From the NCBI GenBank assembly GCA_964582845.1, contig CAZOTW010000005.1, positions 1 to 37,839 on the forward strand: a stretch of DNA of 37,839 bases. The letters run 5' to 3'. Positions 4,080 through 19,870 of this stretch are shown piece by piece. The translations under genes were made by a program, and so were the position numbers. The notes beneath the pieces were generated by a model. It did no database searches. It was not told where the DNA came from and saw only the letters and a program-made list of their open reading frames with translations. Source of the stretch: an uncultured Gammaproteobacteria bacterium. Lineage in GTDB: Bacteria; Patescibacteriota; Microgenomatia; UBA10105; UBA927. The first letter of the stretch is position 1, and each line of letters begins with the position of its first letter.

Positions 4080-4924
4080 ACAAAAACCTCCTTTGGTTCC
4101 TCAAAAATAAGGGTTTCTTGATTTTCGTTTGGCAATGAACCGGCCTGACCGGTTAGCCACCATCGCCAGTACTCTTCTGCTGTATTAATCCCATTAATAT
4201 CACAACGTTCGTCCCCGAACCGTTCGAACCACGCCTTTATCGCCTTTTCCCACGCGGCAACGATACGGGGATGCCACCGTCTGCTTTGTTCTTCAACTCC
4301 AGGGAGAGCGAGCGGACAAAGAACGCACCCGACACGTTTGAAGTTGAACGGTTCTTTGTAAAGAGGATTTATCGGAATGTTGTTTTCGTTAATATATTCC
4401 CACACCATTTCATCAGTCCAGTCGATGATGACATGGCAAAATCGTTTTGTTTTTGCCCGTATACACTGTTCGATAACTCGGTATCCTGATCGTCGCGCAG
4501 ATTCGGCGGCGCGAACCCCGGTAACAACCATATGTCCGGTTCCAAAATGTTCTTTGTAGTCCCGACAACACCATCTCCTGCCATTGCGAGAAGGAGGGGC
4601 AGTTCTTACTTGCTTTATTTTCTGAAGCAATGGAATTGTAGGGCGGTGTATTTCTACGTCGGGATATTCTTTCTTGATATGCCATATTGTTTCTGGTGCG
4701 TCTACGGTTGTAAGTGAATGATGGAACGTTGCCTTTACTCTAGCCGCCTTTGCAAGGTGGTAAATTACTGACGAGTCTTTCCCTCCTGAAATTCCAACCC
4801 AGTATCCGGCAGGATTCATGTTTAAAGCAATCGGTTCAAAAAGTTTCAACCGTTCTATTGCTATATTCACCATGTCACGTTCACCGAATAAATCGTTCGG
4901 GTGAAGTGCTGAATTTGTTTTCAT
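4076..4924 (-). CDS. Phosphoadenosine phosphosulfate (PAPS) reductase family / PP-loop ATPase protein
   Basis: PP-loop GISGGKDSS, the RRWCCRDYK motif and C-terminal GCVLCPLA are typical of phage PAPS-reductase-family proteins. Confidence 0.9.
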   Translation of the reverse strand: MKTNSALHPNDLFGERDMVNIAIERLKLFEPIALNMNPAGYWVGISGGKDSSVIYHLAKAARVKATFHHSLTTVDAPETIWHIKKEYPDVEIHRPTIPLLQKIKQVRTAPPSRNGRRWCCRDYKEHFGTGHMVVTGVRAAESARRSGYRVIEQCIRAKTKRFCHVIIDWTDEMVWEYINENNIPINPLYKEPFNFKRVGCVLCPLALPGVEEQSRRWHPRIVAAWEKAIKAWFERFGDERCDINGINTAEEYWRWWLTGQAGSLPNENQETLIFEEPKEVFV

Positions 4925-5727: not shown

Positions 5728-6144
5728 TTACAAGATGTTGGCCAGAGTCATGCTCATTTTGTTACTGTCTTGCGTTGCGACAGAAGAGGCGGCAGTGACG
5801 GTATGTTCATTGCTTTCAAAAGCCGGCCCGCTTCCTTCGTCAAAACCGGAGGGGGTAAAACGGAATTTAAATTTATTACCTACTGTAAACGTAGCCGCAA
5901 CGGTATACCGGAAAAGAAACGTCCAAGTGCGTGATTCGCCGGAGACCGACACGGACGGGCAATCGTAAAAATACTCATTTGCAATATCAGAGTACGGACG
6001 CTCAGGAATCGCGGTTGGATCAACCGCAGTGAGTTCCGAATACGCGCCGTACCCGGACCCGGTGTCAATCGCCATCTCAACCATGAATTGATCGACACCT
6101 TGAACCGTATCAGGCACGCTGATTCTTTTTCCAATTGCTGGCAT
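5728..6144 (-). CDS. Hypothetical protein (138 aa), last gene of the accessory arm
   Basis: TAATG overlap with the upstream gene. No signal peptide. No family recognised. Confidence 0.7.
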   Translation of the reverse strand: MPAIGKRISVPDTVQGVDQFMVEMAIDTGSGYGAYSELTAVDPTAIPERPYSDIANEYFYDCPSVSVSGESRTWTFLFRYTVAATFTVGNKFKFRFTPSGFDEGSGPAFESNEHTVTAASSVATQDSNKMSMTLANIL

Positions 6145-6989
6145 TATGGCCTCACATATTTTTTTACAAAAAGTGTGTGCGCTGTCGGAGCGGTATTAAA
6201 TACTCCAGCGGCGGTACGTATCCTTGACCTAAAATAATGATTGTAAAGCGTCGCTCCCACATCTGGAACGACAGCCCAAATAGAGTCAATTCCGGCAGTA
6301 TTAAACCATCTAGTAACTACCATTGGTATCGTCATTCCCCCATCGATCCAGGAGGTGCTTAGTGCCCCCGAATCGCCTATATCGGTGCAATAAAGGGTAA
6401 TGGTGTCAAGTATCCGACAGTAATCCCAATCGGTCGCCCGGCGAACGTGACAGCGGGCAGAATCTACGGATGGAATAGCAAGGGCGGTCAGCGTCAACGT
6501 AATATTGCTCGTGAGCACGGTATCAAGCGTATCTGGAACCCCGGCTACAACCGTTCCCCCTGGCCACGATCCGACGTATCCGGCGTCTACGGTGGCGATG
6601 AACGTCAAGGATGCTCCAGAGTCAGCCGTAAGGCCGTCAGGTGCGGTGATGAGGCTGTGGGCGTCGTATACGGTATCTGCGGCGTACTGAGGCGACCCTG
6701 CCAACTCGCTAAAAAATACGGAATCAATTCGATTTTCTGTAATACTGTAAACCATTACGGTGTCGGGATACCTGACAACATATCGAATGGCACCCACAGA
6801 AACAATCGAGTCGCACCTATCCCCCACATTTGCAACGGCAATAGTGGTGCATGCTGAGGCCGAATCAATAGTATCGACAGTAAATTCCTCGTCAAATTGT
6901 CCGAGACTTCCAAAACCAAAATAGAAATCACCTAAACCAGAGATGGCCGATACTGGCAGCAGTAGTGCAATCAATAATATTTTATACAC
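6144..6989 (-). CDS. Secreted hypothetical protein (signal peptide)
   Basis: GTG start with GAGGA SD. The N-terminus MYKILLIALLLPVSAISG has the n-h-c organisation of a Sec signal. Confidence 0.75.
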   Translation of the reverse strand: MYKILLIALLLPVSAISGLGDFYFGFGSLGQFDEEFTVDTIDSASACTTIAVANVGDRCDSIVSVGAIRYVVRYPDTVMVYSITENRIDSVFFSELAGSPQYAADTVYDAHSLITAPDGLTADSGASLTFIATVDAGYVGSWPGGTVVAGVPDTLDTVLTSNITLTLTALAIPSVDSARCHVRRATDWDYCRILDTITLYCTDIGDSGALSTSWIDGGMTIPMVVTRWFNTAGIDSIWAVVPDVGATLYNHYFRSRIRTAAGVFNTAPTAHTLFVKKYVRP

Positions 6990-6996
6990 ATTGTCC

Positions 6997-7980
6997 TCAA
7001 TACATTATTTTTAACGTGCCATTCGTATGGTACATTTGTCCATTCGAAACCCCGGCCGTACGGGCTGTAGCGCTATCAGCAAAATTACAGCTGTCCGCAA
7101 CCACCGATAAAAATACTCTTTTGTAAATGGTAACGTTACCATTTGGTTCGATGTAAACCCTACCTAAATTAGAGGTCCGTACGACCATGGGGTCAGCCCC
7201 TACTGTTCCAAACAAAGCGCCGTCCTGATCTGCGTAAAGTAGTGCGTTCCCATTTGCAAGCTGTATACTTCCTGCTGAACTGGTACTATATATATTACCG
7301 TCAAAAGAAACCGATCCAGTCCCCGATGTCCATTGACTTGACACCATGAGGTTGTTGCTTGCGTCATAATACCCGTTATACGACCTAATTCCGCCTCCGC
7401 CCACAACCAGGGATTGCGTATAATGGTTTTCAAGAGAGTCGTATTTTGCTGTGTCAAGAGCAATTCCTATGTTGCCGTTTCCGGCAACCATCAATCTGCA
7501 ATTATCACCGGTAAAAATTTGTACCGGGCTGTAGTCGCGCTGTCCAATTTGAAATGCACTGCCAACATGCCCTCCGACCCCTACAAAAAGGGCGGCCCCC
7601 TGATTGTACGGATTTCTACCTATCCTTCCCCTCCTGCCCGGCACAACCGCCGAGTCGGGCTCAAAATCAATAAATGAACTGGTGTATATGGAGGGAGTCA
7701 GTAAGATACCGGCATCTTGCGCCCCCGTACCGACTATTCGCAAAAGAAATTCATGCTCGGGGGTGGTACCCGATATTGTTAATACGTTGTCAAGCGAGCA
7801 CTTTCCATCAAAATGAAATCTCTCCGCATAATGAGTTAAGATCGAGTCGTACAGCCTTGCCCAATTGGGCAACGAATCCTTTGAATACCCATACTGCGGC
7901 AGTTTCCAATCTCCGACCTGATGGGACTGCCCGGCCGAAACTGCACACATAAACAGAATTGATAAAAAAATCTTTTTCAT
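6997..7980 (-). CDS. Secreted hypothetical protein (signal peptide)
   Basis: The N-terminus is MKKIFLSILFMCAVSAGQS. The body is Gly/Ser/Asn-rich and looks beta-rich. Confidence 0.75.
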   Translation of the reverse strand: MKKIFLSILFMCAVSAGQSHQVGDWKLPQYGYSKDSLPNWARLYDSILTHYAERFHFDGKCSLDNVLTISGTTPEHEFLLRIVGTGAQDAGILLTPSIYTSSFIDFEPDSAVVPGRRGRIGRNPYNQGAALFVGVGGHVGSAFQIGQRDYSPVQIFTGDNCRLMVAGNGNIGIALDTAKYDSLENHYTQSLVVGGGGIRSYNGYYDASNNLMVSSQWTSGTGSVSFDGNIYSTSSAGSIQLANGNALLYADQDGALFGTVGADPMVVRTSNLGRVYIEPNGNVTIYKRVFLSVVADSCNFADSATARTAGVSNGQMYHTNGTLKIMY

Positions 7981-7981
7981 A

Positions 7982-8272
7982 TTAACGATCCACCTCTTCG
8001 GATAAACTATCCAAGATCCTGTGAACCGAGGGTATCTCTAATAGGCATTTTTGAGCACCGATAGTTTTTTCCATGGAACTTATCAACTTTTTTTGTAATT
8101 CTATGAGACGCAGAAATTCCCCCACAGCGCCTATTATCGCCTTTTTATCTTGCTCGTCAATGCAATCTTTTGACATAATAGATGTTAAAGTACTATCAAA
8201 ACTATCGCCGAAAGGATTGTTTTGGCTAAAACATGCCCCTACAATAAGCAACACAGTCACAAATACTTTCAT
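7982..8272 (-). CDS. Small putative lipoprotein / secreted protein
   Basis: ATG 8272 is preceded by AAGGAG plus 7 nt. MKVFVTVLLIVGAC has a lipobox-like VGAC. The ORF-track start at 8323 is unsupported. Confidence 0.7.
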   Translation of the reverse strand: MKVFVTVLLIVGACFSQNNPFGDSFDSTLTSIMSKDCIDEQDKKAIIGAVGEFLRLIELQKKLISSMEKTIGAQKCLLEIPSVHRILDSLSEEVDR

Positions 8273-8283
8273 AGCATAGCTCC

Positions 8284-11200
8284 TTATGGTGTAAGTACCG
8301 CAGTCCCGCAACCGGTCCCGCAAATAATGTTTGTCGTTCTTGTATACCTCTTAATAGCAAACACAGCTCTAACCGATCCTGTGGTATGAAGGGCGCATGT
8401 TGTCGTTGCGTCTTCAAGATCGGTAATCTCGATTGTACCTGTCAATACTTCCCACTCAACAAAATCATATCCGGCCCCGTCGGTTGCCGTTAAATTAAAC
8501 CAAACTGCGCTATCATGCACTGTCGTTCCAGCAGGGTCAACAGATCCGCCACCAGAGACGGAGGTAGTAAGATTATATTGCGGTACATCCTCTTCATCCC
8601 CAAGCGATATCAAAGCAAGTACGGTGTCCACCCACAATGTATCTCCACCGGTGGCTCCGATATAGCTGGGAATTGTTACTCCGTCGAGATAGGGATGATT
8701 TCCTCCAATACCGCCATTGGCAACTGTCAAAGATCCATTTACGGTATGCGCGTTTCGAGTTTTTAGGTCACTGTTGGTATACAGCAAATTCCCGGCGTCA
8801 TATGCTTGTAAAAAATGTAAAATAGAACGTGAGTATCTCGTATTATACTCCGCCAATGTCAACCGATTTCCTTCATCCCCTGAGTAACCGAGATAAAAGA
8901 TCTGATCACCAACAGGATCTTCTCCATAAGGAAGATATCGATAGGTGTAATTGTTCCCGAGGTGCACAGAATCGTACCTCGCATAGCTATCGGAAGAGTA
9001 CGGCCTAGTGACGGTATAAATAGATTTATCCCATCCGTCTATATTGCGGCAAGAGTCATTTATGTTGTTGTACATGTATACATATGATAGTGTCTCTGGC
9101 GTCGTAACATCAGAAATATGGTCATTAGTATTATGCACCTGAATAACTACCCACGGTGCACGGTATATCGTATTGTTGTAAAAACACTGACGATAATTTG
9201 TAGCTTCATCGGCAGCTGTGCCCGTTATTGCGATAGAACAAGCTTTGAATATGTTATGATGCACCTGGGCAAAGTCGGTGCGCACATTGAGCGCCCTATA
9301 ATACGTCGTCCAATAATTGTGATGAACATTCACCCCGTAATATTTATAGTCATCTTCGTACCCTTCATCGGCCTGATCACGTCCGCATAAAATTCCTTCG
9401 TTTTTATCGTGGTAGCCATTAAGTGCGTAACCGAAATAATTGTACCTGATCGTGTTTCTTATGCGTGAACAACCAGGACCAGTATATGTAAAGCCGGTGT
9501 CGTACAAGGAATGTTCCTTGTAGTCACCAAATATTAAGATATGTCCGGGATTGATGTCATCGATCGGCGGAAGGCATCCATTTGAATCAAACATACAATA
9601 TTCGATTATGCACGAATCGTACAGATACCCTCGAATCCCAGCAGGGTTCTCTCCGGCCGACCCGCTCAGGTTGTTAAATATTTTCAGATGGGTAAATTTG
9701 AATGGACCAATATCAAGACTGATTCCTGCCGCGTCAATATTATCAACTTCCGCCCCGCCGGTTATTCCAAGAGAATCTATCTTCCAAAATGCAACCCCTA
9801 CAACGTCGTATGTACTATCCTGGCCATCCGTAATGGCCCCTATCTTTTGTCCAGTGTCACCACCATTAATTGTCGCCCATTCGCCAGAATAAGATTTCAA
9901 CAAGTTGTAATTTCCATCAATCCAGGCGGTTCCATTTTTTGCAGAAGGCAACGTCACTTTTTCGAAGTACGTTCCGGCTCGAACCAGTATGTGGTCTCCA
10001 GCGGCCATCTTATTAACAGCCCACTGGATGCGCCGGTAACATTGTTCCGACCCGCCAGAGCACGATCTCGTCGCGGGATTATATGTTGCGCAGCTATCGG
10101 TTATTGAGCTATCTGCATATATCGTGTCAATTGTCTCGGCAGCATAATACGTAAAAGCGCTTGCCAAAGTATCCCGCATACCATCGCTATTTTCGATGAT
10201 GACGTTCACCGCGCCGGCCGCATGAGCGGGGGCAATAAATCCGACCACTTCGTCCGACCACCAATACTCAGTTACTGCAGCACCATCGACTAATACGTAT
10301 CCGTCCCCTTGTGCTGCTTTAAATTTTGCACCTATCAAGTCAATCCTTGGCCCCCCGCCAGTTGGGCTGCATAACCACGCTGCCCGGGCGACAACAGGCG
10401 TATCAAGGGAGGCACCGCCCCCGGCCGTACGAACTGTATCCATCAGCGTCGTATCGTGCAGGGTCGTGGTCCCGTTGCTCAATCCATCAGTTATTGTCTT
10501 ATACCAATATTTTGTTCCCGCGGTGAGTGAGGCAGCTGCCATTGTCTTATTTTCTCCGGCAACGACAGTGTCGCTATCGGCAACGGACCATGCAGACAGC
10601 GTGTCCGCAGTTACCATAAGCCGTACCTTCGCTGTATCCCCTGTGAACCAACTATTCAGAGAAAGAAAACTCGGCGTATAGTTGCTGTTATTGTGTCGAA
10701 AACTAACGGCTATTGAACAGGCAACAGAAAATCCGTTTTCGGTAATCCCAGAAGTGTCTCCAAGATTGGAGAGATACTTTTTTGATCCTATGTTTGCGAA
10801 TGTAGAATTGCCTTTGTGGTAGTTCCAGATCCCGTCGTCAAGCAAGAACGACGACCCCCTGTTATAGAAGGTATCGGTAAAAACAATTCCTAAATTAACG
10901 GTAGTATCAAAAGCAGTATTAAATTCTGTCAACGACGAATCAATAGTCGCTCCATGCGTTTTCCATATTCCGATATCTCCAGAATCCAAGAAAAGGCATT
11001 TTTCAATATTTATATTCCAAGACGAGTCGTCGTTTGCGTTATTTGCGACATTGAGCATATAAATATCGTTACGACCACTAAAAGAAGTGTTTCTGATTGT
11101 TAAATTATGTATGGACGTGTCCGCACCGGTTTCATTCTGATGTATGTAAACGTTTCCCGATGACGACCCATGCAGAGTGTCCCACATGGTCACGCCATCT

Positions 11201-12051
11201 ATGATACCGTCATGCCATCCATCGGGGCAGATAAATACGTGCCCCATATTGACAAACGTACAATTAATAACGGTATCGTTATGACTATAAACATCCGTAC
11301 CGTCCCAGGTAATAAACTCGCCGGACGCAGACGACACGGTTTGGTCAAACCAACAGTTTGAAAATTTTATCTTTCCCGCATATACCATTGCAGTATTCTC
11401 GTATCCACCAGCAATAAATACGCACGAATCGAACTTCCACGCCTGCCCCATATTCACAGACGTGGAATCAAATACGCATTTTTTTACTGTTACATTTGTC
11501 GCAGTTTCCGATGAATCTACATTGCCTCTAATCCCTTGATAAATGCGCTGAAAGTAGCAGCCATAAAAATTTGTTGGTTCGATTACGGTTGATCCATTAG
11601 CACGGGTTAAGAAGCACCCACGCTTATTCTCGTTGATATCATCTCCAAGGTGTATGAAGCGCACATTGTCAAACCTATGGCCACCCCACCCTTCCGGGGC
11701 GGTTCGAAAGATATAATTGGCACCTGATGCTTCCCCGGACGCGTATAGAATGTTTACGTTTTGAAACCGTATGGTATCCGCTTCGTAGGCATAAAAATTA
11801 ATTATGCCTGTAAGGGTATTTAGCGTGCAACTATAGGTATTACCCGGGGCCGAACGAACCAGAATTCTATTTCGATCAAATATTACCATGGCAGTATGAG
11901 ATATGTCTGACACGAGCTGAATCGTATCGCCGGCCGACGCCGCCGCTTCGGCTAGATTAATAGTGGCATACGTACCGCCGCTACCGGTGGTGAGGATTGC
12001 AGCGGAAGAAAAAGTGAACAGCAGTATCATTAATGTCAGAAACTTATTCAT
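8284..12051 (-). CDS. 1255-aa secreted multidomain protein: two right-handed parallel beta-helix (pectate-lyase-fold) regions, an IPT/TIG-like domain and a C-terminal InlB-B-repeat-like domain
   Basis: AGGAG SD 6 nt upstream of the ATG. Signal peptide MNKFLTLMILLFTFSSAA. AGDTIQLV and later AAGDHILVRAGTYFEKVTL are typical beta-helix entry motifs. PRIDLIGAKF...VNVIIENSDG is IPT/TIG-like. YNLTTSVSGGGSVDPAG...GYDFVEWEV forms the C-terminal repeat. Confidence 0.9.
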   Translation of the reverse strand: MNKFLTLMILLFTFSSAAILTTGSGGTYATINLAEAAASAGDTIQLVSDISHTAMVIFDRNRILVRSAPGNTYSCTLNTLTGIINFYAYEADTIRFQNVNILYASGEASGANYIFRTAPEGWGGHRFDNVRFIHLGDDINENKRGCFLTRANGSTVIEPTNFYGCYFQRIYQGIRGNVDSSETATNVTVKKCVFDSTSVNMGQAWKFDSCVFIAGGYENTAMVYAGKIKFSNCWFDQTVSSASGEFITWDGTDVYSHNDTVINCTFVNMGHVFICPDGWHDGIIDGVTMWDTLHGSSSGNVYIHQNETGADTSIHNLTIRNTSFSGRNDIYMLNVANNANDDSSWNINIEKCLFLDSGDIGIWKTHGATIDSSLTEFNTAFDTTVNLGIVFTDTFYNRGSSFLLDDGIWNYHKGNSTFANIGSKKYLSNLGDTSGITENGFSVACSIAVSFRHNNSNYTPSFLSLNSWFTGDTAKVRLMVTADTLSAWSVADSDTVVAGENKTMAAASLTAGTKYWYKTITDGLSNGTTTLHDTTLMDTVRTAGGGASLDTPVVARAAWLCSPTGGGPRIDLIGAKFKAAQGDGYVLVDGAAVTEYWWSDEVVGFIAPAHAAGAVNVIIENSDGMRDTLASAFTYYAAETIDTIYADSSITDSCATYNPATRSCSGGSEQCYRRIQWAVNKMAAGDHILVRAGTYFEKVTLPSAKNGTAWIDGNYNLLKSYSGEWATINGGDTGQKIGAITDGQDSTYDVVGVAFWKIDSLGITGGAEVDNIDAAGISLDIGPFKFTHLKIFNNLSGSAGENPAGIRGYLYDSCIIEYCMFDSNGCLPPIDDINPGHILIFGDYKEHSLYDTGFTYTGPGCSRIRNTIRYNYFGYALNGYHDKNEGILCGRDQADEGYEDDYKYYGVNVHHNYWTTYYRALNVRTDFAQVHHNIFKACSIAITGTAADEATNYRQCFYNNTIYRAPWVVIQVHNTNDHISDVTTPETLSYVYMYNNINDSCRNIDGWDKSIYTVTRPYSSDSYARYDSVHLGNNYTYRYLPYGEDPVGDQIFYLGYSGDEGNRLTLAEYNTRYSRSILHFLQAYDAGNLLYTNSDLKTRNAHTVNGSLTVANGGIGGNHPYLDGVTIPSYIGATGGDTLWVDTVLALISLGDEEDVPQYNLTTSVSGGGSVDPAGTTVHDSAVWFNLTATDGAGYDFVEWEVLTGTIEITDLEDATTTCALHTTGSVRAVFAIKRYTRTTNIICGTGCGTAVLTP

Positions 12052-12175
12052 TTTTATCTCCTGTCGGGCAATAAAAAAGGGACAAATACGATGGTTACGG
12101 CACCGTACTGCCCCTTTTAAATCTTACGATCACCGGCCCGCTAAAGCCGATTATCGCCCGAAAATTCTTACTCTA

Positions 12176-12415
12176 CTATTTCTCCGGTCCGAACCCACCA
12201 GACTTATTTGTAAGCGCACTTTTTATCAAGTACGCAATTCCTGCCTTTAGAGAGAACGCGCCATAGCTTATCCACTGCGCCGTTGTCGGAAAAACTCCTG
12301 TCGATAATACAGGCGTAATGGATGGCGCAACCTCGATCAGCATGAAAATTCCAATGACAGAAAGAGAATGCATCATATCTCTAAACCCAACCGTAAGAAA
12401 TTTTGATCGTTCCAT
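12176..12415 (-). CDS. Holin-like membrane protein (79 aa, two predicted TM segments)
   Basis: The two hydrophobic segments are LSVIGIFMLIEVAPSITPVL and WISYGAFSLKAGIAYLI, followed by a charged C-terminus. GAGGAG SD. Confidence 0.65.
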   Translation of the reverse strand: MERSKFLTVGFRDMMHSLSVIGIFMLIEVAPSITPVLSTGVFPTTAQWISYGAFSLKAGIAYLIKSALTNKSGGFGPEK

Positions 12416-12439
12416 TATCTCCTCAGTTCTTGGTAATAC

Positions 12440-13306
12440 TCAATTTATACAGTTATCAAATGCATAGTTCAAAGCATTGCGAACCACTAAATATTCACCC
12501 GTGGATCCATCGCTCGCACGGTAATACTCATCGGCCCTAATTGACGTATCAACAATCATTGACGCAACCTGGAATCGGCAGGAATGGTTTATCGCTTCCG
12601 CCGGTCCAAGTTTTTGAAGAGCAAGATCCGGTAGCTCGTACTTGTTACCAATATCAACCCCGTTGCGCCAACCGAATGGACTATTGTCATCGCGCAGTAA
12701 GTCGGTAGTTATGGGATCTCCAGGCTGCTCAAATCGAGTCACGGTCATCGGGCAGTGCGAAGATTGAAGAAAGCCAGAAAGCTCCAATTCATGTCCGCGC
12801 TTAAAATATGGCGGACACGCAAATAGATTTGCCTCTACCTTGCGTGTAGGGTAGTGTCTGGAAAGCAGCAAAAGGACCCGCTGCATATATCCAGAGCCCT
12901 GCGAGTGCGACCCGGTAACGAATACTTGGTATTGTTCTAAAACACCCTCTGATTTTAGCCACTCGAAAAATTGATTTCCAGCATTCTGAAACCCGTTATG
13001 CTCCCCGTCTTCACCGCAAACCAAGTTTAAGTCATATTTAAGCCATGATTTTGCATTCGCCGATTTTGTATCGCCAGCCGTTCCCCTACCAATAAGGTAG
13101 CATATTTTGTAAATCTCGTCAATCACGTAACCGAATTTAAGTGCTCCGTTCTCACGCGACTCAAATTTACATCTAAAATAACTTGCTTCGCCTCCGCGAA
13201 TACCGATAATTTTTTCAAGCATGTCATCGGTTCGATAAGATAGAAAGGCAAACGCTGCCGCAGTAGCCGCAGTACGACTGATTGGCGGTAGTTTTTTTTC
13301 GCTCAT
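12440..13306 (-). CDS. Class-3 lipase-like alpha/beta hydrolase
   Basis: YLIGRGTAGD ... HNGFQNAG ... VFVTGSHSQGSG follows the Lipase_3 pattern (RGT, H-x-GF, nucleophile elbow xHSxG). The start is coupled by ATGA to the upstream micro-ORF. Confidence 0.75.
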   Translation of the reverse strand: MSEKKLPPISRTAATAAAFAFLSYRTDDMLEKIIGIRGGEASYFRCKFESRENGALKFGYVIDEIYKICYLIGRGTAGDTKSANAKSWLKYDLNLVCGEDGEHNGFQNAGNQFFEWLKSEGVLEQYQVFVTGSHSQGSGYMQRVLLLLSRHYPTRKVEANLFACPPYFKRGHELELSGFLQSSHCPMTVTRFEQPGDPITTDLLRDDNSPFGWRNGVDIGNKYELPDLALQKLGPAEAINHSCRFQVASMIVDTSIRADEYYRASDGSTGEYLVVRNALNYAFDNCIN

Positions 13307-13419
13307 AGTTTCCTCACAAAATCACCAACAGTGGCATCGCTAAAATCTCCAGTGTCGTGCAGGGAGATTGTTATCTCCCCGTCGATAGAATTCGCCTTTA
13401 TTACTGTGCCGGTGATCAC
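13303..13419 (-). CDS. Micro-ORF (38 aa, not in ORF track)
   Basis: GTG start preceded by GAGGAGG plus 8 nt. It has a GTGA overlap upstream and an ATGA overlap with the lipase gene. Translation: MITGTVIKANSIDGEITISLHDTGDFSDATVGDFVRKL. Confidence 0.4.
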   Translation of the reverse strand: MITGTVIKANSIDGEITISLHDTGDFSDATVGDFVRKL

Positions 13420-13616
13420 CGCTTTTTCCTCCTCAATTCTTTCTCGATTATTCCGTTCAGTTCGTCATTCGTCCCGGTGTAGTATTGGCACTCGGGATTT
13501 TGACAGGTATAGCCATGCCCATCCTTTTTCCACTTGTGCTCGCATATCATCTGCTTTTGCATCGTGGATATATCCGTCATTATTGCAACAGCGACGTGCC
13601 GACTTGATGATTTCAT
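13416..13616 (-). CDS. Hypothetical small Cys/His protein (66 aa)
   Basis: Contains CEHKWKKDGHGYTCQNPEC. ATGA overlap with the upstream micro-ORF. Confidence 0.55.
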   Translation of the reverse strand: MKSSSRHVAVAIMTDISTMQKQMICEHKWKKDGHGYTCQNPECQYYTGTNDELNGIIEKELRRKKR

Positions 13617-13762
13617 ACTGCATCACCCGTAGAGACGGGCGGAAACGAAAATGCGTCGTCCGCTATCTCAAGAGCCTCATGAATAATTTCGTCATCTATT
13701 GGCCTTAATTCACTTAACAACTGTATTGCTGTTTTTCCTGCCGGCAACATAGATTTACTCAT
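13613..13762 (-). CDS. Micro-ORF (49 aa, not in ORF track)
   Basis: ATG 13762 is preceded by GGAGG plus 5 nt. Translation: MSKSMLPAGKTAIQLLSELRPIDDEIIHEALEIADDAFSFPPVSTGDAV. Confidence 0.5.
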   Translation of the reverse strand: MSKSMLPAGKTAIQLLSELRPIDDEIIHEALEIADDAFSFPPVSTGDAV

Positions 13763-13809
13763 GCGCCCCTCCGTTCGAAACGAACAATTTCCACCCCCTA
13801 AATATACCC

Positions 13810-14040
13810 CTAATCGTCCACTGATTTTACAGCATTTTTAACCAATGCCGATATTTTGCGCAGCTTCTCATCTCTAATAATTTTGTCAATCTGCCCCTCT
13901 AACCGTTTTGCCAGCCATATGCGCCCAGCCGCATAGTCCCCCTCATCATCATATGCACACTCCATGCCACCCTCGCACAACATGGCTATGGCGTTATTGT
14001 AGGCGTCCATTTTTGCTTCGTATGATACTCGTTTGCCCAT
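13810..14040 (-). CDS. Hypothetical acidic protein (76 aa)
   Basis: Open frame in the operon. No family recognised. Confidence 0.6.
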   Translation of the reverse strand: MGKRVSYEAKMDAYNNAIAMLCEGGMECAYDDEGDYAAGRIWLAKRLEGQIDKIIRDEKLRKISALVKNAVKSVDD

Positions 14041-14044
14041 ACTC

Positions 14045-14131
14045 TCAAATATACCCCATTATCGACGCCGCTGCCACGATACCAGCTACCAGTGCCCACG
14101 GCCACCAACGACAAGAAATGTTGATGTCCAT
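14045..14131 (-). CDS. Micro-ORF, single-TM peptide (28 aa, not in ORF track)
   Basis: Translation: MDINISCRWWPWALVAGIVAAASIMGYI. TGATG overlap with the upstream ORF. Confidence 0.35.
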   Translation of the reverse strand: MDINISCRWWPWALVAGIVAAASIMGYI

Positions 14132-14256
14132 CACCGCGCCACACCAGTAAAAGCAATATATATCACCCTGCCAACGAACATGAGGATGGCACTCCCCCAA
14201 CATGTTAGCATCACAGTAAATACGATGTTGATCCTACTTTCTCGTTTAACGCACAT
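14131..14256 (-). CDS. Micro-ORF, single-TM peptide (41 aa)
   Basis: ATG 14256 lies 2 nt after the upstream stop. Translation: MCVKRESRINIVFTVMLTCWGSAILMFVGRVIYIAFTGVAR. Confidence 0.4.
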   Translation of the reverse strand: MCVKRESRINIVFTVMLTCWGSAILMFVGRVIYIAFTGVAR

Positions 14257-14258
14257 TC

Positions 14259-14441
14259 TCAACCGCCTTTTTTTACGACAAACGTGTCGAATAGGTATCC
14301 GATAATGGCGAGGAGCTGCACGAACGATGCGCCGATTACAATCCATATTTTATTTTCTATCGAATCAACGCGCCTATCAACAGCGATATGCTTTTGATCG
14401 CAAAGCTCTTTGGCTAGCTCCTTTTCCTTTTCTGTTGTCAT
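14259..14441 (-). CDS. XhlA-like / holin-associated membrane protein (60 aa)
   Basis: An N-terminal charged helix is followed by a C-terminal TM segment (IWIVIGASFVQLLAIIGYLF), the same architecture as XhlA-family lysis proteins. AGGTGGA SD. Confidence 0.6.
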   Translation of the reverse strand: MTTEKEKELAKELCDQKHIAVDRRVDSIENKIWIVIGASFVQLLAIIGYLFDTFVVKKGG

Positions 14442-14525
14442 CTGTCCACCTATCGTTTTGCTCCGTATCCGGGAGCGTGCCTCGAATTGAACCCCTGTCG
14501 GCGTGAGGCTTTTATGTGCCGGGGG

Positions 14526-15638
14526 TCAGTATGTCAAAAATGTTCCGCAATGATCGTCAACTGTTCCTACGGTAATCGGTACACCTCCACAAGCATCGTT
14601 TAAGATTCCGATGGTGAGAGTGTCACATTGAGGAACTGAGTACACACTCCTCAATATCCTTCCCCCGCTTGTTCCGGCAACAGCTATTCCATTCCCTAAA
14701 TATTTTACAGAACGAATACTTGTTTGGCCAAACTGCTGCCCAAGGCTATCCCAAGTAACCCCATAGTCGGTCGACCTTAATATCTGGCCGTTGGATACCG
14801 TTCTTGATGTTCCAGCTACAACTATTCCTCCACCCATGTTTGCAATTGAATAGATAAAGTTTTGTGAATATTGCTGTCCAAGACTTGACCACGTTGAACC
14901 CGAGTCGGTTGACCTTAAAATGACTCCACTATTAGCACTACCAGCAAGCACCACTCCGTTACCTAATGTCTCAAACGACATGACTGCAAGTAAACCAAGC
15001 GAGTTTCCGATGCTATCCCATGTCACTCCGTAATCAACGGATCTACAAATATATGCATCGTAACCGGTTGCGGTAACATAAGGACCGGCCAAAGCTACCC
15101 CGTTTCCAACATTACATAACGACCTAATTTCAGGTTGAGCACCCATATTATACGGTCGCCCGATGCTATCCCATGTCACTCCGTAATCAATGGACCTGAG
15201 TATAAATCCACTCGAATAAGTTCCAGCAAGAACTATGCTGTCGCCCAACGATTCTACCGAGTAAACAATACTTTGCCCGTATGGTCTGACTGCGTACCCC
15301 CACGTTGCACCGTAATCGGTTGACCTAATTATGGTTGTGTCGTAGAAGGTTATCCAATTCATACCAGACGCAACAACAATTCCACTACCCGCGTTGGTGA
15401 TACTAAATACAACATCTAAATGTTGCGCACCTAAGTCAGTCCAGTTGGCTCCATAGTCAATTGATCTAAAGATGTGGCCATCGCCATCGCCAGCAATAAC
15501 TATTCCGCCGCCAACATCCTCAATAGTATAAATAGCGTCTGTTGCTATTTGGCCAAGGTCAACCCACACCTCACCCTGTCCCCACCCCACCCCGACTATC
15601 GCAAGGATGCTAATTAAAATGTAAATTGACTTAGTCAT
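14526..15638 (-). CDS. Secreted BNR/Asp-box beta-propeller protein
   Basis: Signal peptide MTKSIYILISILAIVGVGWG. Six S-x-D-x-G-x-(T/N)-W boxes (RSIDYGANW, RSTDYGATW, RSIDYGVTW, RSVDYGVTW, RSTDSGSTW, RSTDYGVTW) occur at roughly even spacing. A near-identical ~30-nt DNA segment occurs twice, near 15010-15045 and 15163-15200. Confidence 0.9.
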   Translation of the reverse strand: MTKSIYILISILAIVGVGWGQGEVWVDLGQIATDAIYTIEDVGGGIVIAGDGDGHIFRSIDYGANWTDLGAQHLDVVFSITNAGSGIVVASGMNWITFYDTTIIRSTDYGATWGYAVRPYGQSIVYSVESLGDSIVLAGTYSSGFILRSIDYGVTWDSIGRPYNMGAQPEIRSLCNVGNGVALAGPYVTATGYDAYICRSVDYGVTWDSIGNSLGLLAVMSFETLGNGVVLAGSANSGVILRSTDSGSTWSSLGQQYSQNFIYSIANMGGGIVVAGTSRTVSNGQILRSTDYGVTWDSLGQQFGQTSIRSVKYLGNGIAVAGTSGGRILRSVYSVPQCDTLTIGILNDACGGVPITVGTVDDHCGTFLTY

Positions 15639-17133
15639 GTAGATAGCTCAATTCAAATCTTGCACTTTTTATTACCGGGTCAGTCCCGTCGGTGTTACAG
15701 GTTATTTGCATTAATACCATATCGCCTGTTGTAATTTCTAAATATATAGGCTGAGTAACACATTGAATGTTGCCTACTCCGGTAGTTGATGGTATATTAT
15801 CTTGGCCAACAGAATCGGATTGCGTAACGTTGTAAAAACGAATTGAAAAATCTTTCCCATCTAATGCAGAGTAACAAATCTTTGCAGTGCCGTGATAAAC
15901 CCCGCCGTGTGCGAATATCATCGTATCACCACTTAAAAAAATTCCGTCATGCTCTTCTCCACCCCAAAGAGTATGCGCCGCATTGGTTACCTGTTGCCAA
16001 TCGTTTGCAGATGTAATTGATATAGTAACGGAACTATCTCGGAAACCCCCGTATGCGTGCCAGATTGAATCTTGAAAAACCCGATAAGAACTAATGTGCC
16101 CATTAAATACAGATAGTGGAGTATTGTTTACTATGTGGTCGTAATTGAATGACCCGGTATCAGCAGAAAAAAGAAGTAGCGTTCTCCCTATTTGTATATC
16201 TGATCCGGTAGTAAAAGCCTGAGATATCCTCAAGTATTTCAAAGTGTCTCTTGAAAATAAATGAAAGCCATCATGGGAAACGTTATTCCAATAAAGACGC
16301 AACCCATCATCGGAAGAGGTGCCACCCTCGTAAGACAAATTTAGGTCCACAGCACCACCAGACACCACGGTTTTAGTTCTCCACGTTGAGGCTATTATTG
16401 CATCGGCGCTGTCGCTCGATTGTAAAATAGCAGTCCCCTTTGATGCCCCTTCACAACCGTCTAAAAGCAAGTACGACCCGCGACTTGAAACACCCCCACC
16501 GTAAGTACTTATATATAGTGCAGTACGATCTAAATTTACATCAGAATAAGTGCCAAGCGCACCCATGTAAAGAGATATAACCCCTGTAGTGGTATCACCT
16601 AAATAAAAATTGCGCGGAAAGAAAACATCTCCGTATGCAGTGTCGTACCTCATGTTGGTAGTTCTCCATAACCTACCTCCGAGCGACACTGGAATTCTTA
16701 AAGCTGTTACGTGGTGGTTTAGGCTATCGGGTAGTGTTGTTGATGTATGTAAATGATATGATGGATTAACGGTAGGAAACATTGAGTCGCATCGCGAGAT
16801 TGTAAACATTGAATCGTTACGCCACATAACGAACGTGTCGCAATCGGATGTTGTTGAGTAAGTCATAGCATTACCTGCGGTAAGGGCATACCCGGCGGTA
16901 TCGGCATACGGGACGGAATCGGAGGTAGGCACATGAAGCGCAGTATCTGCAACGTGGGCAGCGCGTACTGAATCGCGCTTTTGAAATTTTCCAGCCGCAT
17001 CGGTTCCTACAACCATTGCATTTCTTAGACTGTCAACCTTCAAAGAGTCTCGAAATCTTCCACTTGCCGTATTGGTAACATATGCAGAAAAGGCAGATGC
17101 CGCCATAACCAAAATTAAAAACATTGACCTCAT
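15631..17133 (-). CDS. Tail-fibre-like protein with N-terminal signal-peptide-like segment
   Basis: ATGA-coupled to the upstream tail gene. N-terminus MRSMFLILVMAASAFSA. This is followed by an Ala/Asp-rich fibre-shaft-like segment (AAHVADTALHVPTSDSVPYADTAGYALTAGNA). Confidence 0.8.
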   Translation of the reverse strand: MRSMFLILVMAASAFSAYVTNTASGRFRDSLKVDSLRNAMVVGTDAAGKFQKRDSVRAAHVADTALHVPTSDSVPYADTAGYALTAGNAMTYSTTSDCDTFVMWRNDSMFTISRCDSMFPTVNPSYHLHTSTTLPDSLNHHVTALRIPVSLGGRLWRTTNMRYDTAYGDVFFPRNFYLGDTTTGVISLYMGALGTYSDVNLDRTALYISTYGGGVSSRGSYLLLDGCEGASKGTAILQSSDSADAIIASTWRTKTVVSGGAVDLNLSYEGGTSSDDGLRLYWNNVSHDGFHLFSRDTLKYLRISQAFTTGSDIQIGRTLLLFSADTGSFNYDHIVNNTPLSVFNGHISSYRVFQDSIWHAYGGFRDSSVTISITSANDWQQVTNAAHTLWGGEEHDGIFLSGDTMIFAHGGVYHGTAKICYSALDGKDFSIRFYNVTQSDSVGQDNIPSTTGVGNIQCVTQPIYLEITTGDMVLMQITCNTDGTDPVIKSARFELSYLHD

Positions 17134-17411
17134 TCGTCTACCTCAAAATTAAGCGGCAATCGCCTGTTGTGTCGCGACCCGTCCGGCCACAACATGTATT
17201 TGAAATCGTAGTCATTATAAATATAATACTCTTTAACGTATCCTGTCGGGGGAATCGGTACGAGCGAATGATTTAAGTAGATAGGTGTCCCATTTACCGA
17301 TTGAGCAGAGACCCTAACCACACCCATATCAAGCAATTCCAATATGCGATAGATGTCGTTAATGACCTTGTCGGTTGATGGGCTCCCCGTTGTTTTTCTC
17401 TGGTATTTCAT
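17130..17411 (-). CDS. Hypothetical tail-region protein (93 aa)
   Basis: Open frame coupled to neighbours. No family recognised. Confidence 0.65.
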   Translation of the reverse strand: MKYQRKTTGSPSTDKVINDIYRILELLDMGVVRVSAQSVNGTPIYLNHSLVPIPPTGYVKEYYIYNDYDFKYMLWPDGSRHNRRLPLNFEVDE

Positions 17412-17420
17412 GGTTCTATT

Positions 17421-17876
17421 TTACGCATTATTTACGATATACCAATAGTTTCCAGAATAGACAAGCATTGCAGATTCGTTGGCAGCAATGCTGTAGGTCG
17501 ATGAGCTATATTTTATTGCAGCATATCCGGAGGACGGCGCTTCGTTTATGCTTAATACAACTATTCCAGAGCCAATATTTATCAAAACTATTTTATTTGA
17601 CGCGCTTCTTCCAGTAGTACTGATTGCGTGGATGGTTATAAGCCCTCCAGCTTCCGGGTTTTCTGGATCGTATACGGGGGGATCAAAAAGGAAGGTGTCG
17701 TATTCTGATCCTATATCAAGCTCATAATCTGAATCTGGTGTAGGCTCAGTTAACGAACCTCCATCGGCAATACCACCCCCCTGATGCTGTATTCGTATAT
17801 TTTCTTCGATTCTTATCAAATCACCGTCCCCTACGTTCTCGCTATCCCAATTAGTTTTTGGTGTAATATAACTCAT
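17421..17876 (-). CDS. Tail fibre / baseplate-associated protein
   Basis: The N-terminal PKTNWDSENVGDGDLIRIEENI resembles the PKT(D/N)W...D.NRIE.N motif seen at the N-termini of prophage tail-fibre-associated proteins. Confidence 0.65.
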   Translation of the reverse strand: MSYITPKTNWDSENVGDGDLIRIEENIRIQHQGGGIADGGSLTEPTPDSDYELDIGSEYDTFLFDPPVYDPENPEAGGLITIHAISTTGRSASNKIVLINIGSGIVVLSINEAPSSGYAAIKYSSSTYSIAANESAMLVYSGNYWYIVNNA

Positions 17877-19870
17877 GATTGTATGTCAACCGCCTTTCTC
17901 GCTGTTAGCCTGCACCGTAACCCGTCTTCAAAGGAAAATTGCTGCCTGTAAGATAAAAAACTATCTGTAACACTAATCCCGGTACTGCTTGGAGTGTATA
18001 CTGGGACGGTTACGCAATCTCCAATTTCAGCAGCCGGATTTCCTCTCCATTCAACCTCAACGTCACGCCGCAAATTCTTATATGTATCAAGGAGCACCAG
18101 CGCAACAACTAAAGACAACGCTGCGTTTTGAAGGAGCGGATTAATATTGTACTTGTACTCACGCAACCCATATAGCGCAATAGAGTCTTGATCCGATTCG
18201 GTTACTTCTGATATAGATTCTGTCTGCAATTTTTTTCCGGTAACCAAGACTTCAAATGTTCCAGAAGTTCCAGTTGCCTTGTGGAAAGATATCGTGCATC
18301 CCCATGGGTAAAATATCTCATATGTCTTGTACACTGTTATGTCGGCTTGGTTCTGAATTGCTGCAACACCATCAAGAACTACTTCGTCTCCCCATTCGAT
18401 AGTTACTGTTGTATCGTCAATGCCTTCAGCCATTGATACTTCAGTCGTTGAAATTTCTGATGCCTCGATCTCAGGGATAGTTTCGGCAACTGGAACTATT
18501 ACCCTGTTTTTCAGGCCCTCACTTTTTGATTTTTGGCTACGATTAAAATAATTGTCTCTTGTTATTGCATAATCAGGAATTTTTGCTTCATTTGCAGTAT
18601 AAGATTTTATAATCAATACATCGTTACGATCCATGTAAATATATCCCATGCAAGCAGCGGATATTTTTGCAAGAGCATCCATATATGTAGTTTTTCCAAG
18701 CCATGCATAGGGTATAATAAAATCTAGTAATGATGTGTCAATACTCCATACGAGGTCGTTCATAGGAATATTTTGCTTTGCATGGTTAAGAATAAATTCA
18801 GCGTATGTATACAAGGTAACATTTAACAATACCTCGTCGGCTCTAAATTCAACTTCCCGCAATAACTCCAATCTGTCACGACAAGACACTTGAACGCTGA
18901 AATTCTTTTCTTCGGTTGTCCAGTCATTAGTCCAGAAGACGCCCATTTTTACATATTCAATTTCCTGATCTGAATTTGGCAATTGAAAACCTATATATGG
19001 AGTGATCCTGACGTTTGGTGTTAAAGAATTGGCAACGTATGAACCTGAATTATTCGGAAAGAACGGATCAATAAACGATTCGCCATTTTCACGTATTATT
19101 GAAATATTTTGAAGCTCAACATCACATTCGTTGCAAGACACGTTTCCCGTTGGAACGGTGCCGTTTTCAACTTCTCTTTCCTCCAAAATATTTAACGAAA
19201 CGATATCATCGGTATAAAACACATCGCTTATTGTTCCGTAAAATTCAACTATTTTAGCCATTGTTCCGCCGGAAGACCATTTAATAATGGTAAGCTTCAT
19301 GCTTCCGGCTGCGTTTATATTTTCAGAAGTAAGATCTATAATCGTTTCAACCGAACTACCTGAATATTGATGGTTAAAAATTTCGATGTCGTCGCCGTCG
19401 TAAATTGTCACCTCAAAAACTTCAGGATATTCTTCGCGTGTTGGTTCTCCGCAAACAACTATGCGTCGTATTGCCCTCGCCTCTGCAAACGAAACAGTTG
19501 CTTCAGGATATGGCTCCGAAAAGTCACCATCAGAATCCCCCACAGACGCAGTATACCATCCAACCTGATTATTTTGTTGTCCGGCGACCGAAGAAGGAAC
19601 GGTAAAAAACGTTCCATCACTAGAGCACGTTCCGTCAGTAGACAAGTATTTATGTGGAGTCGATCTTTTTGTGTCAACCAAGTGAGGATCGTGCCATGAG
19701 CCAGGAACGTAGTAATCTTGCCCTAAATCGCCCATCCTATTGTAATCATTTGACGTTACAACCATACCCGAATTAATAAAAGGGTCAGTCCATAGCACGT
19801 CAATTTTAACCCGTGGGATTCGCGTTTCCGCTGTAACCTGTTCGGTAAATTCTTGAGATACTGCTATCAT
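17873..19870 (-). CDS. Tail hub / tail-associated (Tal-position) protein with galactose-binding-like (discoidin-like) insert
   Basis: 665 aa, two genes after the tape measure. The segment GWYTASVGDSDGDFSEPYPEATVSFAEARAIRRIVVCGEP...FEVTIYDG looks like an F5/8 type C domain. Confidence 0.75.
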   Translation of the reverse strand: MIAVSQEFTEQVTAETRIPRVKIDVLWTDPFINSGMVVTSNDYNRMGDLGQDYYVPGSWHDPHLVDTKRSTPHKYLSTDGTCSSDGTFFTVPSSVAGQQNNQVGWYTASVGDSDGDFSEPYPEATVSFAEARAIRRIVVCGEPTREEYPEVFEVTIYDGDDIEIFNHQYSGSSVETIIDLTSENINAAGSMKLTIIKWSSGGTMAKIVEFYGTISDVFYTDDIVSLNILEEREVENGTVPTGNVSCNECDVELQNISIIRENGESFIDPFFPNNSGSYVANSLTPNVRITPYIGFQLPNSDQEIEYVKMGVFWTNDWTTEEKNFSVQVSCRDRLELLREVEFRADEVLLNVTLYTYAEFILNHAKQNIPMNDLVWSIDTSLLDFIIPYAWLGKTTYMDALAKISAACMGYIYMDRNDVLIIKSYTANEAKIPDYAITRDNYFNRSQKSKSEGLKNRVIVPVAETIPEIEASEISTTEVSMAEGIDDTTVTIEWGDEVVLDGVAAIQNQADITVYKTYEIFYPWGCTISFHKATGTSGTFEVLVTGKKLQTESISEVTESDQDSIALYGLREYKYNINPLLQNAALSLVVALVLLDTYKNLRRDVEVEWRGNPAAEIGDCVTVPVYTPSSTGISVTDSFLSYRQQFSFEDGLRCRLTARKAVDIQS

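Follow-up and report, generated by a model that had tools for sequence, protein, structure and literature searches.

The window analysed here, i.e. the entire stretch of 37,839 nucleotides (nt) of contig CAZOTW010000005.1, is a 37.8-kb siphovirus-like phage contig with nearly all of its genes on the minus strand, which run from the small and large terminase, portal, protease and capsid genes through a head-tail block and the tape-measure gene to the tail-tip genes. These are followed, between positions 5728 and 17133, by a region in which six open reading frames (ORFs), SP1 to SP6, encode proteins that begin with predicted Sec-type signal peptides. In the following list, arrows mark predicted cleavage sites and scores are those of the signal scan.

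15631-17133, minus strand: SP1, 500 residues, signal MRSMFLILVMAASAFS↓AY, score 4.16; fibre-like protein in the tail-fibre position
14526-15638, minus strand: SP2, 370 residues, signal MTKSIYILISILAIVGVGWG↓QGE, score 4.2; BNR/Asp-box (Sortilin-Vps10-like) beta-propeller
8284-12051, minus strand: SP3, 1255 residues, signal MNKFLTLMILLFTFSSAA, score 4.36; beta-helix-like repeats, TIG and a C-terminal InlB B-repeat (Flg_new_2)
7982-8272, minus strand: SP4, 96 residues, signal peptidase I site CFS↓QNN or lipobox-like VGA↓C (Cys14), score 4.69
6997-7980, minus strand: SP5, 327 residues, signal MKKIFLSILFMCAVSAG↓QSH, score 4.34; orphan
6144-6989, minus strand: SP6, 281 residues, GTG start with GAGG upstream, signal MYKILLIALLLPVSAISG↓LGD, score 4.71; orphan

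The original prediction, namely that the ORFs starting at 17133, 15638, 12051, 8272, 7980 and 6989 share such N-termini, was confirmed from the translations. Signals were called with a heuristic scan of our own, based on (i) a charged, basic n-region, (ii) an uncharged hydrophobic core of 7-15 residues, and (iii) small residues at positions -3 and -1 (the -3/-1 rule). Exactly these six of the 45 predicted proteins exhibit the tripartite Sec-type N-terminus (scores 4.16-4.71); the best of the other 39 attains 2.26, and none of 7,271 internal 40-residue windows scores at least 4. The tripartite character of the N-termini is thus real by this measure. It had also been proposed that the hydrophobic segments serve as membrane anchors for an unusual mode of fibre assembly, but the cores comprise only 12-14 residues, which is not long enough for a membrane-spanning segment, and peptidase sites come after them. 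No C-terminal sorting domain of the type IX secretion system (Por_Secre_tail / TIGR04183-type) was detected by Pfam or NCBIfam in any of the six, and the idea that SP1-SP6 are cargo of this system was rejected on these grounds. Cysteine content was discarded as a marker of export, since cysteines are just as frequent in the cytoplasmic tail protein and in the terminase.

Shine-Dalgarno-like tetramers precede 27 of the 45 starts, as compared with 10.7% of random positions, and are likewise present ahead of the six SP starts, which supports the annotated start codons. In the case of SP4, the ATG at 8272 has AAGGAG 8 nt upstream, while the longest ORF begins with a TTG at 8323. True starts located downstream of the hydrophobic segments are not indicated, given the Shine-Dalgarno motifs at the annotated starts and the lack of a convincing internal start in SP1. 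A dual-start arrangement giving rise to a cytoplasmic SP1 isoform was rejected as well, since no convincing internal start with a ribosome-binding site was found.

Both the ATGA coupling of SP1 to the upstream gene for a 93-residue protein and the 8-nt overlap of SP1 and SP2 are present as originally described. All six genes lie among the 13 that are encoded between 5728 and 17133 (hypergeometric P = 2e-4), but they do not stand six in a row, as had been claimed. Instead, they are arranged as 2 + 4, with SP1-SP2 and SP3-SP6 on either side of a lysis-like cassette of seven signal-less genes (12176-14441). SP3-SP6 and a final ORF of 138 residues are separated by gaps of -1 to 11 nt, and the SP genes are translationally packed into the late operon. 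No convincing internal promoter was found in it, and the only terminator-like hairpin is a weak one (12085-12109, before SP3).

Glutamine at the cleavage site and glycosylation sequons

In Bacteroidetes and some of their relatives such as Ignavibacterium, most substrates of signal peptidase I expose a glutamine upon cleavage, the so-called Q-rule (PMC5837995). Three of the six SP proteins exhibit glutamine at the predicted +1 position, that is, SP2 (GWG↓Q), SP4 (CFS↓Q) and SP5 (SAG↓Q). Bacteroidota furthermore O-glycosylate periplasmic proteins at the motif D-(S/T)-(A/I/L/V/M/T), a sequon which marks non-cytoplasmic proteins and is enriched mainly in that phylum (PMC12871550, PMC8550257). We counted this sequon as D[ST][AILVMT] and derived the expected count from each protein's own composition. 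The six signal proteins together contain 60 sequons versus 15.5 expected (z = 12.2), that is, an about four-fold excess in which each protein is individually enriched: SP1 (16 versus 3.5), SP2 (6 versus 1.8), SP3 (19 versus 6.5), SP4 (2 versus 0.4), SP5 (6 versus 1.1) and SP6 (11 versus 2.1). The other 39 proteins contain 19 versus 22.7 expected (z = -0.8). Seven control motifs (the sequon reversed or permuted, D replaced by E, N or G, and D[ST] with a next residue that does not complete the sequon) do not deviate from expectation in the six proteins.

The cultured Bacteroides phage B40-8 served as a control. Its tail fibres are devoid of a signal and exhibit no enrichment (8 sequons versus 6.0 expected), while its membrane-anchored spanin-like protein of 201 residues (L045 15801-16406) contains 5 versus 0.8 expected. 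Judging from such counts, periplasmic proteins of known Bacteroides phages may also be glycosylated by their hosts.

Conservation in related phages

All 11 SP1 homologues obtained in a word-based search (P0002-P0012) carry signal-like N-termini, including those in which the next domain is unrelated. On these comparisons, what is conserved in the SP N-termini is the signal property and not the sequence. The hydrophobic N-terminus is kept in every homologue, even ahead of unrelated sequence.

The same layout is found in the syntenic contigs L032, L034, partial L005 and L003, in the siphovirus L008, in L039, a sheath-bearing myo-like contig of low GC (guanine plus cytosine) content without Shine-Dalgarno motifs, and in L036, a contig with a P22-type portal. 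In each of those relatives, signals are located on the gene in the fibre position and on the large genes around the lysis cassette, and not on capsid, tail-tube, tape-measure or tail-tip genes; some of these signals lie below the heuristic cut-off and were read by eye. Every large protein encoded downstream of the tail-tip genes in L032, L034 and L008 has, by eye, a signal-like N-terminus, and signal genes flank the lysis cassette in all of the window, L008, L032, L034, L036 and L039. Homologues of SP2, SP3, SP5 and SP6 in L007, L008, L002 and L036 likewise keep their signals: the SP3 homologue of 1901 residues in L008 has a homologous signal and N-terminus, and the SP5 homologue P0015 (72% identical, L036), followed by an SP6-like gene of 177 residues, has a different signal with still a glutamine at +1 (MKKFLFLLVLSSGLFA↓QSH). 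A pair consisting of an SP1-like gene and a signal-bearing propeller gene also occurs in L007 behind the terminase gene, that is, between terminase and portal.

Sequon enrichment extends to these relatives, with 15 observed versus 3.7 expected for the fibre and 42 versus 10 for a protein of 1428 residues in L032, 21 versus 3.1 for a protein of 461 residues in L034, 55 versus 13.5 for the 1901-residue protein in L008, and 18 versus 4.6 for the fibre of L039. A Flg_new/Flg_new_2 protein of 659 residues in L036 (about 7840-9990), which had been called without a signal, contains 21 sequons versus 4.7 expected. From this density we predicted that it is exported, and an in-frame start 171 nt upstream was then found to encode MRKILLLVTFFTSISSA↓YD; the called start is wrong.

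Across the structural genes, a contig of 55 kb (L002; IMGVR_UViG_3300025325_000026) shares 99.7% identity with the window. Where the window has SP3-SP6, this contig carries, at 15146-21406, an SP3 orthologue of 2086 residues with the same signal and extra PKD-like and repeat modules, and its holin-like gene differs as well (123 instead of 60 residues). This replacement indicates that the end of the operon is highly plastic; judged from the two contigs, the putatively exported arm is a recombination hot spot.

An exhaustive HMMER search with the C-terminal head of SP1 yielded a family of 315 representatives. Among its full-length members (n = 135), 57 are signal-bearing and 78 (about 58%) are signal-less. 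The ratio of observed to expected sequons is 1.91 for members with a signal and 0.91 for those without (Mann-Whitney P = 8e-7), and glutamine follows the predicted cleavage site in 20 of the 57 when the best site is taken and in 28 when any compatible site is allowed, as compared with a background frequency of 2.9%. This rate is lower than the roughly 71% reported for Bacteroidetes (PMC5837995), and many of the signals resemble textbook Bacteroidota signals (MKKILL...FAQ). No recognisable host-chromosome genes were seen in the context of seven more signal-bearing members (P0005, P0010, P0012, P0086, P0110, P0074 and P0115), most of which reside where a tail module of a phage ends; the contexts in L043 and L044 are harder to judge. 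In the latter two, nearly all genes of the head-family operon (L043 1907-13213, L044 1440-12993) have a signal-like N-terminus, without enrichment of the sequon; the two contigs may come from another lineage of hosts or represent a cluster of secreted proteins rather than a tail module. The signal-less member P0083 belongs to an SU10-like phage, in which its gene is flanked by the portal gene and by a gene of 540 residues that probably encodes the terminase.

Domain content and neighbouring genes

In SP1, a conserved N-domain rich in sequons is followed by a variable central part and, at about residues 360-500, by a TNF/C1q-like head at the C-terminus. The AlphaFold2 model of SP1 has a mean predicted local distance difference test (pLDDT) value of 47.5, and only the C-terminal 140 residues reach 60-81. 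The modelled structure of the head matches those of the tail fibres of cyanophages A4 and A-1(L), Bacillus BxpB/ExsFA, TNF, C1q and the receptor-binding protein (RBP) of lactococcal phage 1358. The model thus suggests for SP1 the construction of a trimeric fibre whose head binds a receptor, the fold being assigned from a single, moderately confident domain. As is typical for tail fibres, SP1 stands at the end of the tail module, has a conserved N-domain (shared with five other sequences) and has exchangeable heads; what sets it apart is the predicted and conserved cleavable export signal. In the alignment of the N-domain, it is sequons (RDS-x, VDSL, DS-x-R) that make up the invariant columns.

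SP2 matches Pfam BNR_6 and Sortilin-Vps10 as well as phrog_8700, while its match to the NCBIfam glycosylhydrolase F510_1955 is weak and below the cutoff. SP3 matches Pfam TIG and Flg_new_2, and a word-based homologue search with SP3 returned only SP3 itself. For SP4, SP5 and SP6, no family matches were obtained in Pfam, PHROG or NCBIfam. The AlphaFold2 model of SP5 is unusable (pLDDT 31), and SP6 shares a B-repeat-like segment with the C-terminus of the 2086-residue SP3 variant. A sequence search of the PDB with the SP1 family, SP3, SP5 and the cassette protein of 288 residues described below gave nothing meaningful. SP4 appears to be a small exported protein and a possible lipoprotein: with the lipobox pattern [LVI][ASTVI][GAS]C and a cysteine required at about positions 15-35, V-G-A-C with Cys14 matches only loosely and at a borderline position, and the alternative site CFS↓Q is an equally good fit. 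It does not have the setting of a spanin, which is a lipoprotein of the outer membrane paired with, or embedded in, a partner of the inner membrane inside the lysis cassette, SP4 being encoded 3.9 kb from the holin-like genes, behind SP3, and without an adjoining partner having an N-terminal transmembrane (TM) segment.

The neighbouring genes of relevance are the following.

5728..6144, minus strand: ORF of 138 residues closing the operon, without signal; 1 sequon versus 0.6 expected; no family matches
12176..14441, minus strand: lysis-like cassette, seven signal-less genes between the two SP blocks
14259-14441, minus strand: cassette protein of 60 residues with a C-terminal TM segment
within 12176..14441, minus strand: small cassette ORFs of 76, 49 and 66 residues
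12440-13306, minus strand: Lipase_3-like cassette protein of 288 residues
12176-12415, minus strand: cassette protein of 79 residues with two TM segments
17130..19870, minus strand: tail-tip genes without signals, encoding proteins of 665 (PHROG tail families), 151 and 93 residues
24729-27163, minus strand: four-gene cluster inside the head-tail joining module, encoding proteins of 180 residues, 194 residues (S-adenosylmethionine-dependent methyltransferase), 204 residues (MptE/Maf-like) and 236 residues

The cassette includes two holin-like membrane proteins and exhibits no sequon enrichment (0 versus 0.6 expected), and a peptidoglycan hydrolase is not recognisable in the window; in relatives (L039), Amidase_2 is found at the position of the lysis cassette. 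The protein of 288 residues is homologous to syntenic proteins in L008, and the L034 counterpart matches Pfam Lipase_3 with E = 4e-4, just below the cutoff. By position, a Lipase_3-like alpha/beta-hydrolase (GHS/SHS motif) is present in the lysis cassettes of five phages (window 12440-13306; L008 12651-13382; L032 12760-13569; L034 13207-14016; L036 4797-5534), homology to the window protein having been tested for L008 only. By analogy with LysB, this protein might serve in lysis as an esterase that attacks a lipid of the envelope.

Upstream of the SP region, the tape-measure gene is followed by genes for a protein of 129 residues and for the tail-tip proteins of 665, 151 and 93 residues, the last three having 2 versus 3.0, 0 versus 0.7 and 0 versus 0.3 sequons observed and expected, respectively. 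Homologues of the 93-residue gene are located upstream of the fibre gene in L003, L005, L032 and L034, where they co-occur with the SP1-type N-domain. The four-gene cluster, which interrupts the head-tail block, might act on virion proteins while these are in the cytoplasm, for instance by glycosylating them; the cluster is kept in the syntenic phages L032 and L034.

Several further features of the window were noted. At its start (1-97), a GC-rich 12-mer, GGGGTCGCGGTT, occurs in eight tandem copies and gives rise to a VAVG-repeat ORF (13-591) that is spurious; the repeat may represent the terminus of the genome or an artefact of the assembly. Two genes of the PAPS-reductase family (4076-4924 and 36149-37033), an ORF (37017-37610) which overlaps one of them by 17 nt and whose N-terminus is ParB-like by eye but without a Pfam match, and a DUF5131 / radical-SAM-like gene (652-1371) might together constitute a DNA-modification module. 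No tRNA genes are present in the window.

Megablast of the window (5-25 kb) revealed no close relative at the DNA level among cultured phages, and tblastn revealed no relatives of SP2, SP3 or the SP1 head among them. The large terminase (33344-35086) is 63-68% identical to those of the Pseudomonas phages TC7, phi2 and Psp6. It is, according to these searches, the sole protein of the window with cultured relatives, an instance of mosaicism that is misleading for the assignment of a host. Scans of 185,579 species genomes with alignments of the fibre N-domain and the tail protein identified no relative, and a metagenome scan added only two further partial loci. The window is not a piece of a host chromosome or a flanked prophage, since beyond it the related 55-kb contig carries only phage replication genes; neither an integrase nor a repressor came to light in the window or in what was inspected of the 55-kb contig.

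Probable export and glycosylation, and the tail-fibre position

In this genome, a signal, a glutamine at +1 and the periplasmic sequon coincide on one and the same set of proteins only, which is most simply explained by real export, cleavage and host O-glycosylation. It thus appears probable that the products of the six ORFs are real substrates of Sec, made by a phage that infects a host building its envelope in the manner of the Bacteroidota, and that they are host-glycosylated, lysis-released proteins targeting glycans. Translated late from the tail/lysis operon, they would leave the cytoplasm through SecYEG and be cut by signal peptidase I (SP4 perhaps by signal peptidase II), which in three of the six would expose an N-terminal glutamine and, following the Q-rule, be expected to yield pyroglutamate. 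In the periplasm, the general system of the host would then O-glycosylate them at their many D-(S/T)-(A/I/L/V/M/T) sequons. The lack of a domain for sorting to the outer membrane suggests that they accumulate there and are released by the adjoining lysis cassette, whereupon they would act outside the cell on the surface glycans of the host; SP1, by position a tail fibre, may also attach itself to tails freed from the cell.

What the sequences show is how the signals are built and conserved, the enrichment of glutamine and, confined to these proteins, of the sequon, as well as the domain content, and it is from these that we infer actual export, cleavage, glycosylation, release by lysis and an extracellular role. 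A trimeric fibre, a BNR propeller, a giant protein with beta-helix, TIG and B-repeat parts, and small partners are plausible types of glycan-binding or glycan-degrading proteins, and these folds, along with the mosaicism resulting from head swapping, point to host surface glycans as likely targets. Of the original suggestion that the six are exported 'moron' proteins acting on surface glycans, export is thus supported by the conserved signals, the glutamine at +1 and the confined sequons, and the glycan part is rendered plausible by the head, propeller, beta-helix, TIG and InlB domains. The label 'moron', which would call for a temperate phage and for genes with an autonomous promoter and terminator, is not supported, as no integrase was found in the window or in what was inspected of the 55-kb contig, and no convincing separate promoter or terminator for these genes, which are packed into the late operon.

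Several points weigh against this view. First, tailed phages otherwise put the parts of their virions together in the cytoplasm, and SP1 occupies the canonical tail-fibre slot, is coupled to the tail-tip genes and shares its head with many signal-less, presumably ordinary fibres. Second, without the sorting domain for type IX secretion, action on the cell surface prior to lysis is unexplained. Third, the signal calls are based on our own heuristic and on conservation, with cleavage sites predicted to within a few residues, and two signal-bearing family members (L043 and L044) lack the sequon enrichment. Fourth, the phage's own MptE/Maf-like and methyltransferase cluster could in principle provide a glycosylating activity. 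Finally, Shine-Dalgarno-like motifs precede 60% of the genes, which is atypical for the class Bacteroidia. The frequency of these motifs argues against that class and for another lineage having the Q-rule and sequon traits, so that the host is, as far as the genome itself can tell, probably a Shine-Dalgarno-using lineage of the Bacteroidota, for example the class Ignavibacteria or one of its relatives, and would be expected to encode a glutaminyl cyclase and the O-glycosylation locus.

The described substrates of Bacteroidota O-glycosylation resemble the SP proteins in being non-cytoplasmic and enriched in D-(S/T)-(A/I/L/V/M/T) over composition (PMC12871550, PMC8550257, PMC8729774), but are all cellular, whereas the candidates reported here are late proteins of a phage with an about four-fold enrichment. 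Phages are not mentioned in a recent review of this glycosylation (PMC12871550), and our literature searches retrieved no report of Sec signals on fibre-position genes or of phage substrates of Bacteroidota O-glycosylation.

Phage proteins that use Sec and signal peptidases are otherwise known in the form of spanins and of Llp/Cor-type exclusion lipoproteins, which are encoded beside lysis or receptor-binding genes. Those are small membrane proteins or lipoproteins with defined partners, whereas five of the six SP proteins are large and soluble with folds resembling glycan-binding proteins or enzymes; SP4 is alike in being small and in its lipobox-like VGAC, but is not encoded beside an i-spanin-like gene. 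Tail-fibre-like proteins that function at a distance from the particle once lysis has released them are exemplified by PblA and PblB of the Streptococcus mitis phage SM1. These reach the surface only through lysis and are not known to carry a signal peptide or to undergo periplasmic maturation or glycosylation, all of which is predicted for the SP set.

It is conceivable, albeit not what we expect, that SP1 and perhaps SP3 are receptor-binding proteins of the virion which mature in the periplasm and join tails built without fibres in the cytoplasm once the holin acts or the cell lyses. SP1 and its relatives terminate tail modules with ATGA or 8-nt coupling in sipho-like (window, L032, L034, L003, L005, L008) and myo-like (L039) phages, and combine a conserved N-domain with exchangeable heads as tail fibres do; in the window, SP1 has no competitor as a fibre candidate downstream of the tail-tip genes. 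The 93-residue tail-tip gene co-occurs with the N-domain across two different sets of tail-tip genes, and the very high density of sequons would suit a protein that has to survive outside the cell. The resemblance of the head to cyanophage tail-fibre and lactococcal RBP structures points in the same direction: SP1 shares with the proteins of A-1(L), A4 and phage 1358 (PDB 8ke9, 9k09, 4l92) the position after the tail tip and the succession of N-terminal anchor, shaft and jelly-roll head. Known fibres are folded and put together in the cytoplasm and have no cleavable signal, whereas SP1 and 42% of the head family are signal-bearing, with glutamine at +1 and sequon enrichment. Since the invariant residues of the supposed docking N-domain are sequons, glycans would sit badly in a protein-protein interface, and the pair of SP1-like and SP2-like genes between terminase and portal lies outside the tail module. 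The tail protein of 665 residues, whose L034 orthologue has a weak F5/8 type C match, could moreover bind the receptor alone. To our knowledge, there is no precedent for Sec-exported virion parts in tailed phages, which also counts against a place of SP1 in the particle.

Similarly tentative is the view that all six are purely non-virion accessory proteins, either masking or destroying receptors (and thus preventing superinfection or re-adsorption to debris) or serving as adhesins in lysogenic conversion in the manner of classical morons. SP3-SP6 are located after the lysis cassette at the end of the operon, which is the usual place of accessory genes, and this end is highly plastic, as seen from the replacement of SP4-SP6 by the 2086-residue SP3 in the 55-kb variant; TIG, InlB B-repeat and BNR domains are typical of bacterial surface proteins. 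Precedent exists in prophages of Porphyromonas gingivalis, the 'Nixviridae', whose Sec/signal peptidase I proteins of unassigned function follow the Q-rule and were read by the authors as an adaptation to Bacteroidota export (PMC10367356). According to that report, these proteins likewise expose an N-terminal glutamine but are cargo of temperate phages without a link to the fibre position, receptor-binding folds or sequons (PMC10367356); in the window, on the contrary, the whole fibre and beta-helix arm is signal-bearing and lysogeny genes are not seen. With neither integrase nor repressor evident in the window and in what was read of the 55-kb contig, lysogenic conversion is doubtful, and a surface-sorting signal is missing. 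The genes have neither a convincing internal promoter nor more than the one weak hairpin, and mosaicism by head swapping resembles the host-range evolution of receptor-binding proteins.

A much less likely origin of the sequon enrichment is the MptE/Maf-like and methyltransferase cluster of the phage itself (24729-27163), in place of a periplasmic system of the host. Glycosylation of virions in the cytoplasm by phage enzymes is known for mycobacteriophages, and the cluster is conserved in L032 and L034. Yet the enriched motif is exactly the periplasmic sequon of the Bacteroidota and coincides with the signals and the glutamine at +1; it is also enriched in the signal proteins of L036 and L039, in the partial stretches of which no such cluster was called, and not in the capsid and tail proteins encoded beside the cluster.

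That the hydrophobic N-termini are not used for export at all, being mere mimics as the original prediction had considered, helices for trimerisation or baseplate insertion of cytoplasmic fibres, or artefacts of true starts further downstream, is highly improbable: tail fibres are indeed expected to lack signals, as do the fibres of B40-8 and, as explicitly stated and unlike their bacterial counterparts, the phage targets of diversity-generating retroelements (PMC6199706), but neither the glutamine at the cleavage site nor the confined enrichment of a periplasm-specific sequon would be selected in the cytoplasm, signal character is kept on non-homologous N-termini, and Shine-Dalgarno motifs stand before the annotated starts with no convincing internal start in SP1.

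We thus return to export and host glycosylation of the six proteins as the probable scenario and to its implications. Particles of tailed phages are thought to be built wholly in the cytoplasm, to the extent that missing signal peptides have even been used as an argument for phage origin. Here, three marks of export and glycosylation are found on a whole set of late fibre-, propeller- and beta-helix-type proteins, and the pattern recurs in sipho-, myo- and podo-like contigs, which raises the testable question as to whether a virion component matures outside the cytoplasm. It is then tempting to speculate, though with considerable reserve, that in a set of uncultured phages with Bacteroidota-type hosts the receptor-binding fibres are finished there, that is, exported by Sec, trimmed, capped with pyroglutamate and coated with host O-glycans before joining tails at lysis. 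If so, this would be the first extracytoplasmic step in the assembly of a tailed-phage virion, with a phage dressing its fibres in the glycans of its host. If export and host glycosylation of the six proteins hold true, the receptor-binding proteins of these phages may be glycoproteins, which bears on the prediction of host range, on recombinant production and on immune recognition. Phages would then be able to hijack the Sec, Q-rule and O-glycosylation pathway of the Bacteroidota, and the combined signature of sequon and Q-rule would allow one to assign uncultured phages to hosts of the Bacteroidota type from sequence alone and to find the proteins that they export.

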